From IMG/VR virus record IMGVR_UViG_3300041405_000130: 64,000 bases of DNA; one strand, 5' to 3'. The notes under the pieces are model-generated. The model was not told where the DNA came from and ran no database searches. It worked only from the letters and a program-made list of their open reading frames with translations. Below are positions 9,099 to 63,839 of the stretch, piece after piece. Each line of letters starts with the position of its first letter. Position 1 is the stretch's first letter. A program made the translations under genes and the position numbers. Origin of the DNA: a virus (taxonomy: Duplodnaviria; Heunggongvirae; Uroviricota; Caudoviricetes).

Positions 9099-9147
9099 CA
9101 AAAAAAAAATAGGCATATTGGCTCTCCGCGAGGAGAGCCTTTATGCC
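9099..9147. terminator. Convergent (bidirectional) terminator at the strand switch: A10 - ATTGGCTCTCC-GCGA-GGAGAGCC-TTTATGCC
   Basis: Perfect 8-bp GC stem; TTTAT follows on plus, T10 follows (after 14 nt) on minus; lies between the converging CDS 7155-9098(+) and 9157-9669(-). Confidence 0.65.
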
Positions 9148-9156
9148 GTAACAAAG

Positions 9157-9669
9157 TTACATAGGGGAAAGTTTTACATCTGCAGGCAATGCATGAATGA
9201 AGCGAGTAGCCCCGCTCCGCAATACCAGAAAGCCTGCAAGGGGTTCATCAACAGCATGGATGTTCAACGATACAAAACCAGCCACGTCTTCATTCATTAC
9301 ATTTGGCCATTGCTGTACGAAATGGAAATTGACATCATTACCATTCTTCAGCAGTTCACCAAACGCATCGTAGATCTGAGTTCTACGGGCAGCACCGAGA
9401 TCTATTTTACCTGTTTGCGCAATCTCGGTATAACGGGTGAATGCTTCACGCGTCAGGCACCACTCTTGTGGGTTCGCTGCGCCAGCCGTACCCTTCACTT
9501 GAATCTTTCTGCGGATTACTTCCGCATTACCTTGAACGATGACAGCCACATCATCTTCCAGGCGTTGAATGGAGCCACGCAGCAGAGTACCAGTTACGCT
9601 ATAAAACTCAACTGGTACCGATTGATCTTTGCTGGTATAAAAGCTTACCAGTGCTTTCAGGTGAGACAT
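9157..9669 (-). CDS. Hypothetical protein (170 aa)
   Basis: Protein-like composition; GGAG RBS 7 nt upstream; the overlapping plus ORF 9118-9942 is rejected. Confidence 0.55.
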   Translation of the reverse strand: MSHLKALVSFYTSKDQSVPVEFYSVTGTLLRGSIQRLEDDVAVIVQGNAEVIRRKIQVKGTAGAANPQEWCLTREAFTRYTEIAQTGKIDLGAARRTQIYDAFGELLKNGNDVNFHFVQQWPNVMNEDVAGFVSLNIHAVDEPLAGFLVLRSGATRFIHALPADVKLSPM

Positions 9670-9684
9670 GTCAATGCTCCGAAC

Positions 9685-9858
9685 TTATGCACACAGAGGC
9701 GTAACGATGTACATCTTCCAGTCACGCACGTTCTGACCGATAGTCAGGAAAGGATGTTCTGCTTTGAGATCCAGACCAGTTGCAGTCCTGGTAGTAACTT
9801 CGTTACCGTTCAGATCTTTAACTTCCAGGTTGTACATGTCCATGTTTTGCAGTTCCAT
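9685..9858 (-). CDS. Small hypothetical protein (~57 aa) downstream of promoter motif
   Basis: Below the ORF-track threshold; ATG with GAGG RBS at 8 nt; sits between promoter 9893-9926 and gene 9157-9669. Confidence 0.35.
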   Translation of the reverse strand: MELQNMDMYNLEVKDLNGNEVTTRTATGLDLKAEHPFLTIGQNVRDWKMYIVTPLCA

Positions 9859-9892
9859 GATAATTTCCTCTTACGATGTTGGGGGCTGTTGC

Positions 9893-9926
9893 AATTAAGT
9901 GATATAGATCTGAGATTGTTTAAAAC
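9893..9926 (-). promoter_or_regulatory. Conserved promoter-like motif (minus strand: TTTAAACAATCTCAGATCTATATCAC)
   Basis: Member of the AATCTNANATCTATAT(T/C)AC family found upstream of minus-strand genes. Confidence 0.45.
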
Positions 9927-10201
9927 CCAGTCGCCCGCATAAAACCAATCGCCATAAAGATGGCGATCCACATGAAACAAATAATGGTAGCCCAGGAGAA
10001 AGGCATGTTCTCGTGGTACCAGCCAGCCACTTTCATTTTGCTGACGACTCGAACAAAGTCCCATTCGGCCATGTGCCGCTCAAACTTCCATTCGATCCAG
10101 TAGATCTGGCAGATTGCCACGAACCTGGCACCATAGTGCAATAAGGCCAGAACGAGAACACCACTTAGAGCAAGATCAAAAGTTGCCATGGTTAAGTCCA
10201 C
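9920..10201 (-). CDS. Small membrane protein (93 aa)
   Basis: Two hydrophobic helices; start/stop coupled with neighbours. Confidence 0.5.
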   Translation of the reverse strand: MDLTMATFDLALSGVLVLALLHYGARFVAICQIYWIEWKFERHMAEWDFVRVVSKMKVAGWYHENMPFSWATIICFMWIAIFMAIGFMRATGF

Positions 10202-61814: not shown

Positions 61815-61820
61815 TGATCC

Positions 61821-62738
61821 TTACGGAAAGCCAGTTGGAAGTTTTGCAGTGTAGGTGTAATCAGCGTTACCCCAGAATCCAGCAGAACCAGTATCATTCA
61901 AAAAGAAACGATTCTCGGGGTTATCTGTCTTTAACCACTTCAGGTGTTGTGGTTTTGGACGCATGCCATATTTAACCTGGATGTTATCTACGTTCAATGA
62001 CCATTTTTCAGACTGGTGGTCAAAGCCTTCTCGGAACGCTCGGATAAACACGCCAAGATCAACAATGGGGTTAGCGCTATTGTCTAACAAATCAATGTTG
62101 AACTGCACATCGAAAGATTCGTGGGTGTGTACACCTGGACAACCCTCTGCTTCTTTGAGGCGGGTGTATGCGCCAAGTTTATCACTCTGGCATGGAATAA
62201 GCTCCACGACAGGTTTCCAAGTGGTCACAGGTTCTTTGAGGACCAGATCGAACAATTGCATGGTGTACTGGGTAACTTCAATTCGATTGTTCCACCGGAT
62301 TTCTCGAAGCATCACGGTAGGGAACTCAAGTCGTTCGCCTTCTTTGGTGTAGAGATGCATCCACTCACCATCGTCAAGGCTATTTTGTGTCAAATAAAGC
62401 TCGTTCCCACCAGCACGTATAAATGCAACCCCATGATTTACTTCTGCTTTACGCATACGCATAAAAGCAATAAGGTCTTTTGCTTTACAGTGAAGATCAT
62501 TGTATTCATCACGGTTGCGCACATACCAGCAGCAATGGGCTACAAACGGTAATTCCAAAGACAGTGGATCAACGGGTCGTAATGTGTCGGTAAGATAAGC
62601 TTTAGGTACACCTGCTTTATCGTTAGTCAACAGTACGTCTGCACCAATATCGGTGCGCCATGAAGCTGCTACTTTGTTCAGGTCTTCGTGATTGACCAAA
62701 CGTTTCAGTTGACGGCGATGCTTGTAATCTTCAAACAT
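61821..62738 (-). CDS. Hypothetical protein (305 aa)
   Basis: ORF. Confidence 0.6.
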   Translation of the reverse strand: MFEDYKHRRQLKRLVNHEDLNKVAASWRTDIGADVLLTNDKAGVPKAYLTDTLRPVDPLSLELPFVAHCCWYVRNRDEYNDLHCKAKDLIAFMRMRKAEVNHGVAFIRAGGNELYLTQNSLDDGEWMHLYTKEGERLEFPTVMLREIRWNNRIEVTQYTMQLFDLVLKEPVTTWKPVVELIPCQSDKLGAYTRLKEAEGCPGVHTHESFDVQFNIDLLDNSANPIVDLGVFIRAFREGFDHQSEKWSLNVDNIQVKYGMRPKPQHLKWLKTDNPENRFFLNDTGSAGFWGNADYTYTAKLPTGFP

Positions 62739-62749
62739 TGTTAATCCTT

Positions 62750-63739
62750 TTATGCAAAGCTACGGTGCAGTGTTGGGTTCTTGAGTGTATAGTGCTGGTT
62801 CTTTTCTCCAGTCAAGCTGTTGTAATAATTGAACCCGTACCGTTGACGTAGGTCGATGGTATACATCTCTTCGGTATGCAGCTGGAACTTGATTCGGTCT
62901 TCATGAATTACCACTCGGTTATTCGGCCATTCAGTTGCAACGATGCGATTCAACAAAGGTTTAATATCAACAACCTCATTACCTTTGCTGACTTCGTGAA
63001 GACGTAGGGTCAACCGGAAATGTTTGACAGTAGCTGCAATACCTTTACTTGGGTACAGTACCGATACGCCAGCCACAGACTTCGCATCTGTTTCTTCGAT
63101 ACCATAAAGGTCGACCAGGTCCACCGGAACAATGTGTTCACCCGAATGAGACATTACCCGTTCTTTGTCGATCAGCGTGACCGCACCCAGGTCATCGCCA
63201 AAATGCCACGTACCTTTATACAGGTGTGCCAGCTTGGCCATCATGTGACCTTGACCACCATAATTCTCAATACCTTTTTCACAGGTGAGTTTTATAATGG
63301 GGACCTGCCCACGATCGAAGTTACCGAACGTGTCATGAAACATAAACCAACGACGCCCACGGGGATCGGTAAAGACATGTCGTCCTTTAAACTGACCCAA
63401 CGCATCAGCAAGCGGAGCTAATGTGGTACGCTGGTCTTCGATACCATTTCTTGGTGCAGGAGCATTAATGACGCCTGACAACACAGAAGGCTTCAATGAG
63501 AAGAATTGGAAATCGGTGTTACGGATCGTTTCGTCGTTAGGAACATAACGACCGATCTGTGGGCCATCATCCAAACTGTGAGCACCGACTTCTAATTTCC
63601 GACCGTAGTTCTCGGTAAAGTAAAGCAACTCTTCACCGGACTCTTTATCCGTACCAATAGCGTAGTCAACGGACTCGCTGGTTAGCACTCGAGTCAACCA
63701 CTCTTTTGGTTTTTCAAACAGACGTTTACCGATACCCAT
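62750..63739 (-). CDS. Hypothetical protein (329 aa)
   Basis: ORF. Confidence 0.6.
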   Translation of the reverse strand: MGIGKRLFEKPKEWLTRVLTSESVDYAIGTDKESGEELLYFTENYGRKLEVGAHSLDDGPQIGRYVPNDETIRNTDFQFFSLKPSVLSGVINAPAPRNGIEDQRTTLAPLADALGQFKGRHVFTDPRGRRWFMFHDTFGNFDRGQVPIIKLTCEKGIENYGGQGHMMAKLAHLYKGTWHFGDDLGAVTLIDKERVMSHSGEHIVPVDLVDLYGIEETDAKSVAGVSVLYPSKGIAATVKHFRLTLRLHEVSKGNEVVDIKPLLNRIVATEWPNNRVVIHEDRIKFQLHTEEMYTIDLRQRYGFNYYNSLTGEKNQHYTLKNPTLHRSFA

Positions 63740-63772
63740 CTTTATTTTCCTTTATTGAATTATTACCACAAC

Positions 63773-63806
63773 AGTAATATAGATTTCAGATTTCATCGAG
63801 TAAAAA
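63773..63806 (-). promoter_or_regulatory. Promoter-like motif (minus: GATGAAATCTGAAATCTATATTACTG)
   Basis: AATCTGAAATCTATATTAC family. Confidence 0.5.
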
Positions 63807-63839
63807 AAAAGAACATATTGGCTACCCCGAAGGGTAGCC
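63802..63839 (-). terminator. Terminator GGCTACCC-UUCG-GGGTAGCC + U9; flanks GCATAAGG / CCAATATG
   Basis: Perfect 8-bp stem and T-run on minus. Confidence 0.7.

Follow-up and report, generated by a model that had tools for sequence, protein, structure and literature searches.

The window analysed here, the full 64,000 nucleotides (nt) of viral DNA in IMG/VR record IMGVR_UViG_3300041405_000130 (Caudoviricetes), carries about 25 copies of a GC-rich hairpin that is often flanked by CATA on its 5′ side and by TATG on its 3′ side. With a probability of roughly 85%, these elements are factor-independent (intrinsic) terminators of a phiKZ-like jumbo phage, representing a module known from phages phiKZ and 201phi2-1. 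The module itself has already been described, and what is new here is its occurrence in a Tepukevirus-like phage. Membership of the window elements in this family is drawn from two lines of evidence, namely the match of their 3′ flank and the cross-recognition of phiKZ elements by a covariance model built from window copies. The flank CTTTATGCCGT, carried by the copies at 9120, 4034 and 11573 (copies are named by a position within the element), agrees with the phiKZ consensus BYTTATKYYGT at 11/11 positions. A preliminary description of the same DNA had proposed a terminator role, which is now supported by the position of the elements past stop codons, their gene-wise orientation, the covariation of their stems and the existence of a phiKZ motif with mapped RNA 3′ ends.

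Transcript-end mapping in phiKZ (Putzeys et al. 2024; PMC10914365) gave the motif 5′-BCCYCCCCHWWDGGGRRGGBYTTATKYYGT-3′, which is shared by 61 terminator regions with a predicted intrinsic mode of action. For 201phi2-1, 132 termination sites are reported, with a motif A (n = 59) that is similar to the one of phiKZ and a motif B by which the hairpin is elongated (PMC11512511). Fifteen of its terminators are bidirectional, and multi-motif (longer-stem) terminators were the stronger ones in a terminator-trap assay in vivo (PMC11512511). RNA 3′ ends map to the motif in both phages (PMC10914365, PMC11512511).

Judging from its sequence, the window is DNA of a phiKZ-like, nucleus-forming jumbo phage (Chimalliviridae; Tepukevirus-like) and a new relative of Psa21 and D6. 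This assignment follows from identity and synteny with the Pseudomonas phages D6, Psa21 and RVTF4, from the taxonomy of Psa21 and from the RNA polymerase genes of D6. The three phages are the closest database genomes, with about 72-77% DNA identity over parts of the window, and megablast of 10 kilobases (kb) of it gave a best identity of only about 77%, to D6; an exact 41-mer search of viral contigs had no match, and the phage itself is absent from the collections searched. One ATPase of the window is 68-77% identical at the protein level to those of Psa21, D6 and RVTF4, and gene order is conserved. Psa21 is placed by NCBI taxonomy in Chimalliviridae, genus Tepukevirus, and RNA polymerase beta/beta′ genes are annotated in D6 beside virion genes. 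No polymerase gene lies inside the window; transcription by the phage's own multisubunit RNA polymerases is presumed from the relatives only, to which the window adds early-promoter-like motifs of the TATATTAC type.

Census of the hairpins

A systematic scan of the window yielded 26 sense-strand readings of GC-rich hairpins at about 25 loci. All 14 positions listed in the preliminary description hold such a hairpin, and its count of more than 15 copies is exceeded with the addition of eleven loci at 11573, 18669, 22296, 28456, 31507, 36492, 40785, 41991, 44250, 56174 and 59385. Stems are of 6-8 base pairs (bp), mainly G-C, as had been described. The loops had been said to be almost always TTCG or CGAA; TTCG clearly leads the tetraloops (15, against 6 for the runner-up), but it accounts for only 15 of the 26 readings, and CGAA is the antisense reading of UUCG rather than the GNRA loop that had been suggested. 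If only stems of 6 bp or more are counted, the sense strand has 15 TTCG-loop hairpins, well beyond chance, since 200 dinucleotide shuffles gave 0.64 on average and never more than 4. Lowering the stem limit to 5 bp gives 19 on the sense strand and 1 on the antisense strand.

The hairpin is always oriented like the local genes, which are plus-strand genes as far as 9098 and minus-strand genes from 9157 onwards to the window end. The two orientations noted earlier thus exist in window coordinates because the gene blocks switch strand at about 9100, but relative to the genes every copy points with its neighbours. The hairpin begins 0-22 nt past a sense-strand stop codon in 19 of the 26 readings, and two copies follow transfer RNAs (tRNAs). 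Many copies lie 17-30 nt upstream of the following start codon, and no promoter can be recognised in between. The preliminary description also held that GCA-TAA in one flank often supplies the upstream stop, which proved true of three copies (15565, 17127 and 49445). Additionally, the elements account for spurious starts of open reading frames (ORFs) at a TTG or ATG inside them, at 1941, 12736 and possibly 11570 and 56171. The proposed reading M-A-(R/H)-L-R-V-S-F is found at 1941 and 12736, downstream of which lie the true ATGs with AAGAGGAA-type ribosome-binding sites, but not in the ORF at 9118, which reads ALREESLY.

A U-tract of the kind seen in canonical Rho-independent terminators (at least five U in the eight nt directly after the stem) follows about 10 of the 26 readings, in some of them only after an extended stem. 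It is to these readings that the earlier statement of a U-run after many copies applies, and the remainder have UUUAU(G) alone; the copy at 60158 had been singled out as having no U-run, and this is the case. A generic terminator scan picks up few copies because most do not have five T in eight, and an Rfam search of the window at gathering score returned only five tRNAs and no match for the hairpins. Predicted folding energies of representative copies range from -15 to -28 kcal/mol (z-scores -3.9 to -6.8), typically for an 8-bp GC stem followed by a 2×2 (or 1×2) internal loop and 3-6 more pairs. The internal loop is the AA/AA mismatch of the preliminary description in three readings and UU/UU, UC/UU or asymmetric elsewhere. 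The core helix is of 7-8 bp and the total helix measures 7-10 bp in about half of the copies, and only the few that have both flanks reach 11-14 bp plus the internal loop. In a jumbo phage that is yet to be annotated, such elements are of use as markers of transcription-unit ends.

Conservation and covariation

Alignment of all 20 tetraloop copies with MAFFT introduced gaps into the 3′ stem, and the alignment was rebuilt from ten gap-free window copies, from which the covariance model was derived; its E-values are rough. The model, a check that the preliminary description had proposed, recovers the elements in the window, in D6, Psa21 and RVTF4, and in phiKZ. In the window it finds 20 loci at E < 0.01, including the 10 training copies, and in 47 kb of D6, Psa21 and RVTF4 about 11 loci. 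A further 11 loci are found at 100-150 kb of D6, all of them in annotated intergenic gaps just past the 3′ ends of coding sequences, and the genes that precede them include tail-fibre, protease and virion genes. Within positions 1-50 kb of phiKZ the model finds about 21 loci directly past annotated coding-sequence ends (best 35.3 bits), and these carry aligned GCAUA...CUUUAUG flanks, for example AAAGCATATCG-CCTCCC-TTCG-GGGAGG-CTTTATGTTGTT. A model of this kind could be reused for terminator annotation across Chimalliviridae.

In the pooled, structure-fitted alignment of 57 covariance-model matches, 98.4% of cells are paired and each of the 8 pairs varies in both partners. Covariation scores 0.774, a value that 0/500 shuffles reached (shuffle score 0.158), and shifting the 3′ partner by one to three columns lowers pairing to 41-60%. 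Orthologous sites offer an independent check: in the gaps that follow the genes for RNA ligase, thymidylate synthase and NAMPT, the hairpin is present in 4/4 related phages (the window phage, Psa21, D6 and RVTF4), with stems that are different yet complementary. The NAMPT-site orthologues provide a compensatory change, GGGGACC/GGTCCCC versus GGGTCCC/GGGACCC.

One orthologue departs from this pattern in its loop. At RVTF4 L004 4152-4195, the counterpart of the window hairpin 47348-47365, the stem is the same and the loop is inverted, reading CGAA instead of UUCG on the sense strand, which looks like a flip by intra-hairpin template switching.

The CATA and TATG flanks

TATG occurs within 11 nt 3′ of the stem in 16/26 readings and CATA within 11 nt 5′ of it in 13/26, where the background for each is about 2.2%; beside hairpins TATG is enriched about 25-fold, and a TTAT/TATG 3′ flank in the broader sense is present in 16-19 of the 26. 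The flanks CATAWWGG and CCWWTATG of the preliminary description are therefore real, but as literal expressions they match only 5-6 sites per strand and define a subfamily. The two flanks occur independently of each other: both are present in 8 readings, CATA only in 5, TATG only in 8 and neither in 5 (odds ratio 1.0, p = 1, n = 26). When ascertainment was based on the hairpin across the window, its relatives and phiKZ, the odds ratio was 1.65 (p = 0.54, n = 45). The fuller form TTATGCC is biased to the sense side (9 vs 2), the flank is conserved as the sequence TTATG and not as a covarying pair, and a 3′ flank with no 5′ partner is frequent in phiKZ too.

At convergent junctions, all ten of those sampled (one in the window, one in D6 L001, four in D6 L007 and four in phiKZ) score on both strands, and at co-directional junctions two-strand scoring is variable. 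Because the flanks are statistically independent and yet both present at every convergent junction sampled, they are best regarded as strand-wise directional terminator signals rather than as arms of a designed RNase III duplex. In the simplest reading, a hairpin followed by TTATG is the directional signal and the 5′ CATA is its opposite-strand version. A flank that is strand-symmetric yet uncoupled, and two-sided at the convergent junctions sampled, may not have been stated in published work.

Relation to known terminators

The window elements share with the phiKZ motif an 8-bp GC stem, a 4-nt loop, the 3′ flank YTTATKYYGT and a position downstream of genes. They differ in their stems, which are more mixed (GGCTCNCC rather than CCYCCCC), and in their loops, with UUCG in 15/26 readings against a consensus of HWWD in phiKZ, where TTCG is found in 6/22 sampled hairpins. 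The window genome, at 46-47% GC, also belongs to a different genus-level lineage (Tepukevirus-like). The phiKZ genome paper of Mesyanzhinov and colleagues from 2002 is said to give most terminators UUCG loops; a literature search on phiKZ terminators with UUCG returned no match. In 201phi2-1, hairpin motif A, the stem-elongating second motif and the bidirectional terminators parallel the window's core, its CATA/TATG extension and its two-tier copies. Motif B of that phage may correspond to the CATA flank.

Bacterial Rho-independent terminators likewise place a GC hairpin right after the gene, can have A-rich 5′ and T-rich 3′ flanks for use in two directions, and resemble the roughly 10 window copies with a long U-run. 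Most window copies, by contrast, have UUUAU and a conserved G and pyrimidines, and where U-runs occur they start 6-10 nt downstream of the core stem. Tuerk and colleagues reportedly described, in 1988, C(UUCG)G hairpins between genes of phage T4. These are said to share the sense-strand, extra-stable tetraloop between genes of a large virulent phage, but to be without a conserved TTATG flank, and T4 uses host RNA polymerase. The window elements are candidate compact terminators for Pseudomonas synthetic biology, although their practical value would be modest.

Proposed mechanism and alternative explanations

If the elements terminate transcription, the transcript would fold, past a stop codon or tRNA, into a 7-8 bp G-C stem that is usually capped by extra-stable C(UUCG)G, followed by the short U-tract UUUAU and then by G and pyrimidines (consensus YTTATGYYGT). 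The polymerase would halt and release at this point, and the 3′-terminal hairpin would also shield the messenger RNA (mRNA) from 3′ exonucleases. The CATA(A/T) 5′ flank, found always at convergent junctions and at some co-directional ones, would allow transcription from the opposite direction to be stopped too. After release, CAUA:UAUG pairing would lengthen the stem and bury the 3′ end, and may add stability, in line with the greater strength of those 201phi2-1 terminators that have an elongated stem. Since many copies precede the next start codon with no promoter, those 17-30 nt before it, often copies with UUUAU(G) alone, would act as leaky terminators or attenuators that permit partial read-through.

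A number of points weigh against this account. Termination in this phage, with RNA 3′ ends at the elements, is argued by homology. Efficient termination at the many copies directly before the next gene, with no promoter, would silence that gene. About 60% of copies have no canonical U-tract but UUUAU only, and the conserved G and YY after TTAT are unexplained by the classical hairpin-plus-U-tract model. The covariance alignment was fitted to the structure, holds both-strand readings of the same loci and includes ten window matches that are training sequences.

The spacing of many copies before a start codon with no promoter, the lack of a long U-tract in about 60% of them and the C(UUCG)G loop, which is said to maximise RNA stability, would all suit hairpins that stabilise RNA and protect its 3′ end, like T4 CUUCGG hairpins or repetitive extragenic palindromes (REPs), with read-through transcripts trimmed to the hairpin by 3′ exonucleases and the polymerase not halted at all. 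For a pure exonuclease block, however, the conserved TTATGYYGT outside the hairpin would be needless, and two-sidedness at convergent junctions suits the stopping of a polymerase. The motif also coincides with mapped termination sites in phiKZ and in 201phi2-1, whose terminators were active in a terminator trap, so that protection alone is an improbable explanation. The missing promoters and the enrichment of TATG beside hairpins could instead mean that TATG is a phiKZ-type late promoter and that the element, as a joint terminator and promoter, starts transcription anew for the gene that follows; late promoters of the phiKZ non-virion RNA polymerase have the consensus TATG, whose G is the start site (PMC4666361). 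Yet substitution at any of the four TATG positions dramatically cut transcription in vitro (PMC4666361), which conflicts with orthologous sites in Psa21 and RVTF4 that read TTTTG. The hairpin-adjacent motif is, moreover, just as common on the antisense side, from which a promoter would yield antisense RNA, the model promoter P119L is without an upstream hairpin, and the published motif was derived from 3′ ends and not from start sites. Late-promoter function is accordingly very unlikely.

The preliminary description further suggested that the extended hairpin, in which a CAUA:UAUG lower stem and a 2×2 internal loop adjoin the GC stem, may double as a terminator and an RNase III processing site, and that such modules stabilise monocistronic mRNAs. 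The longest copies (9120, 60166 and 63820), with 13-14 bp plus the internal loop over about 33-36 nt, do come near the 34-nt minimal substrate uR1.1, and their A/U-rich lower stem suits the proximal box (PMC1540722). Escherichia coli RNase III substrates nonetheless typically have two helical turns, and the minimal substrate needs a helix of at least 11 bp from the tetraloop to the cut, a length that most copies, at 7-10 bp, fall below; G-C pairs at proximal-box positions act as inhibitory antideterminants (PMC1540722). T7 R1.1-type sites are similar in being imperfect intergenic hairpins with an internal loop, but their helix makes about two turns and has defined proximal and distal boxes, whereas the window helix is of 7-14 bp and its lower stem is optional and uncoupled. 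That lower stem is present in only 8/26 readings, a co-occurrence of flanks no greater than chance; the flank is kept as TTATG and does not covary, the 3′ flank alone is common in phiKZ, and two flanks accompany 10/10 of the sampled convergent junctions. Processing by RNase III is thus highly improbable as a property of the family and is possible, at most, in the longest copies. Nor do about 25 elements for about 125 genes agree with monocistronic mRNAs. Least credible of all is a mobile or recombinogenic repeat, such as a palindrome of the miniature inverted-repeat transposable element (MITE) or REP kind, spreading with no role in transcription. One subfamily does have very similar stems (GGCTCNCC) and flanks, and the inverted loop in RVTF4 would be in keeping with it, but the elements hold the same intergenic positions in four diverged genomes with stems altered by compensatory substitution, loop orientation strictly tracks gene direction, and no associated transposase or target duplication was found.

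Within the terminator interpretation, the conserved TATG could, as a tentative and rather doubtful extension, be a polymerase-specific pause or release signal. GP123, the beta-like subunit of the phiKZ non-virion RNA polymerase, binds the non-template TATG at late promoters with G at +1 (PMC12809450). At UUUAU|G, 6-7 nt past the stem, a GP123-type pocket may recapture TATG and stall the enzyme while the hairpin forms. The idea rests on a G after TTAT that is commoner than a plain U-tract needs, on the sense bias of TTATGCC and on the fitting register; if it is true, a 5-nt U-tract would be enough and the terminators would be adapted to the phage polymerases. In a weaker form, the idea invokes the universal elemental pause step, Y(-1)G(+1), of which U|G is a case. 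The identity of the TATG core with the late-promoter element to which the phage polymerase binds is perhaps a point not made before, and it raises the question of how phiKZ-type polymerases terminate.

Two-tier copies and promoter-like motifs

In about ten copies the extended stem is followed at once by a long T-run of the TTTTCTTTTTTG type, which lies 6-10 nt beyond the core stem. Orthologues keep this run, and in D6 and RVTF4 it ends in TTATG(T/C)C. Such copies would be stronger, two-tier terminators that tend to precede the early-promoter-like TATATTAC. The window motif in question, CTATATTAC ((A/T-rich)-TCTATATTAC), is matched exactly at 7 sites, on the sense strand in every case, and several of these sites follow two-tier terminators; six are intergenic, and that at 14777-14785 lies inside the called ORF 14071-14829. 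The motif resembles TATATTAC, the core of the phiKZ early promoter, used by the virion RNA polymerase. With CTATATTAC coming next, two-tier copies appear to close one unit just before another begins.

A second promoter-like motif, AAATACT-N(10-13)-GTAATA-N-TATAC(A), is seen on the plus strand at about 1320-1350, 3263-3295, 3605-3640 and 4062-4095 and on the minus strand at 30972-30940. This candidate motif lies ahead of the tRNA and RtcB genes and of genes near them, in two cases immediately downstream of a terminator hairpin. It has some likeness to the AAanTTACc element of phiKZ middle promoters combined with a start-site motif. Two ORF-free stretches, 3263-3684 (+; 422 nt) and 12737-12908 (-; 172 nt), have a promoter-like start and a terminator-hairpin end and are candidate non-coding RNAs; permissive Rfam scans of both gave chance-level matches only, and their folding is not unusual (z = -1.3).

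Catalogue of copies

Table 1. Predicted terminator elements of the window and sites of the promoter-like motif. Scores are covariance-model bit scores; spans and hairpins are window positions.
Element	Hairpin	Strand	Structure and flanks	Score (bits)	Setting and remarks
523..565	533-551	+	GCCTGCC-UUUUG-GGCAGGC, then TTTATGCCGCG; 5′ flank CATAGT	28.8 (outside training set)	9 nt after tRNA-Leu (438-524)
1935..1975	1943-1962	+	UUCG hairpin GGCTCGCC/GGTGAGCT, then TTATGCCC	21.2	After tRNA cluster ending at 1890; spurious TTG start 1941, real ATG 1995
3564..3607	3576-3591	+	UGCG hairpin, then GCTTTATGC	43.1 (training set)	Ends 422-nt ORF-free stretch; promoter-like motif downstream
4022..4064	4030-4053	+	UUCG hairpin, then TCTTATGCCGT	24.1	22 nt past stop at 4011; 3′ flank fits BYTTATKYYGT at 11/11 positions
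9106..9153	9120-9139	both	Two-sided, GGCATATT-GGCTCTCC-GCGA-GGAGAGCC-TTTATGCC; T10 run on minus-strand side	41.0 and 40.4 (both strands)	Between convergent genes 7155-9098 (+) and 9157-9669 (-); fold -28.2 kcal/mol, z = -6.8; D6 orthologue L001 3039-3086
11560..11601		-	AGCCAGC-CGCUGU-GCTGGCT, then TTATGCCGT	19.7	Candidate D6 counterpart L001 5590-5633 in annotated intergenic gap, not aligned for orthology
12702..12744	12716-12733	-	UUCG hairpin, then TTTATGC	30.6	Spurious TTG start 12736; co-linear D6 hairpin L001 6452-6494, stem different at two pairs
15550..15593	15565-15582	-	UUCG hairpin; 3′ flank ATTTATTTCG; TTTATGC on antisense side	Match	Upstream GCATAA is a stop codon
17113..17154	17127-17144	-	UUCG hairpin; 3′ flank TTTATATCG	23.5	GCATAA is the stop of 17148-17537
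18652..18695		-	UUCG hairpin, 11 bp including G-U pairs, then CCCTTATGCC		Overlaps TAG stop; co-linear D6 match L001 11860-11903
22282..22325		-	UUCG hairpin, then TCTTTTATGTTGC		2 nt past stop; co-linear D6 match L001 15516-15559
28436..28481		-	Canonical-looking, GGGCC-AAUUCC-GGCCC, then GTTTTCTTTTTTG	Missed	
28922..28974	28947-28964	-	Two-tier, CATATC-GCTTCCC-UUCG-GGGAAGC-TTTATGCC, then TTCTTTTTTTTTG	33.6	Early-promoter-like CTATATTAC next, 28882-28890
31493..31536		-	UUCG hairpin, then TTTCTGTTGTTTTCTTTTG	Match	17 nt past stop
36470..36521		-	UUCG hairpin, GCTATCC, then TTTCTTTTTTTT	23.9	CTATATTAC next, 36445-36453
40770..40804		-	GAAA-loop hairpin, then ACTTGTTTTTAAAA		Variant
41440..41490	41461-41480	-	CATATT-GGCTCACC-UUCG-GGTGAGCC-TTATGAC, then ATTTTCTTTTTTG	33.9	CTATATTAC next, 41409-41417
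41991..42013		-	9-bp GC hairpin, AAUUC loop, no T-rich tail	Missed	15 nt past stop; doubtful member
44236..44275		-	UUUG hairpin, CATACG-CGGACC...GGTCCG-TTTATGCC	14 (weak)	After RNA ligase gene
47333..47376	47348-47365	-	UUCG hairpin, 10 bp with A/U extension, then TTTTATTCGG		After thymidylate synthase gene
49422..49473	49445-49462	-	UUCG hairpin, stem extended by GGAC/AUCC, then TATTTTCTTTTTTG		After NAMPT gene, GCATAA its stop codon
56161..56203		-	AGCCTTCC-CUUGC-GGAAGGCT, then TTATGTCC	25.2	
59365..59420	59385-59420	-	Perfect 16-bp UUCG hairpin, then GTTTTTCTTTTTT		15 nt past stop of 59436-59798; -27.7 kcal/mol; stem twice usual length, T-run 10 nt downstream
60152..60199	60166-60185	-	GCATAAA-GGCTCTCC-UCCG-GGAGAGCC-AATATGCC; AA/AA internal loop, no U-run	46.4 sense, 35.2 antisense	
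63806..63852	63820-63839	-	GCATAA-GGCTACCC-UUCG-GGGTAGCC-AATATG, then TTCTTTTTTTTT		CTATATTAC next, 63774-63782
9899-9907 (1 mismatch), 14777-14785, 28882-28890, 36445-36453, 41409-41417, 55487-55495, 60525-60533, 63774-63782		-	TCTATATTAC motif sites		

A further, weak covariance-model match at 26796-26839 (+; 18.7 bits) is not counted as a member, being antisense and inside a minus-strand gene. The 347-amino-acid plus-strand ORF 26829-27872 that starts in the TTTATG of this match is a shadow ORF, the minus frame being 69% identical to D6 and the plus frame 48%.

Genome context

Recognisable products encoded in the window include RtcB, RNA ligase, CCA-adding enzyme, thymidylate synthase, NAMPT and PRPP synthetase; several large ORFs received no function from Pfam and PHROGs. 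The five tRNAs of the cluster at 438-1890, together with the genes at 4455-5777, 25380-26624 and 44273-45754 (RtcB ligase, CCA-adding enzyme and RNA ligase), have the look of a toolkit for tRNA supply and repair. The genes for NAMPT and PRPP synthetase, at 49469-52255, are NAD salvage genes. A near-consensus sigma-70 promoter is present in an intergenic gap at 41076-41049 (-), with TTGACA-16 nt-TAGAAT, a TG before the -10 hexamer and 11/12 matches, in a phage that is expected to be independent of host RNA polymerase. The thymidylate synthase ORF, 47375-48802 (-), encodes 475 amino acids (466-474 in relatives) and far exceeds the region covered by the PHROG profile (about 275 positions), which points to a large insertion or an extra domain.

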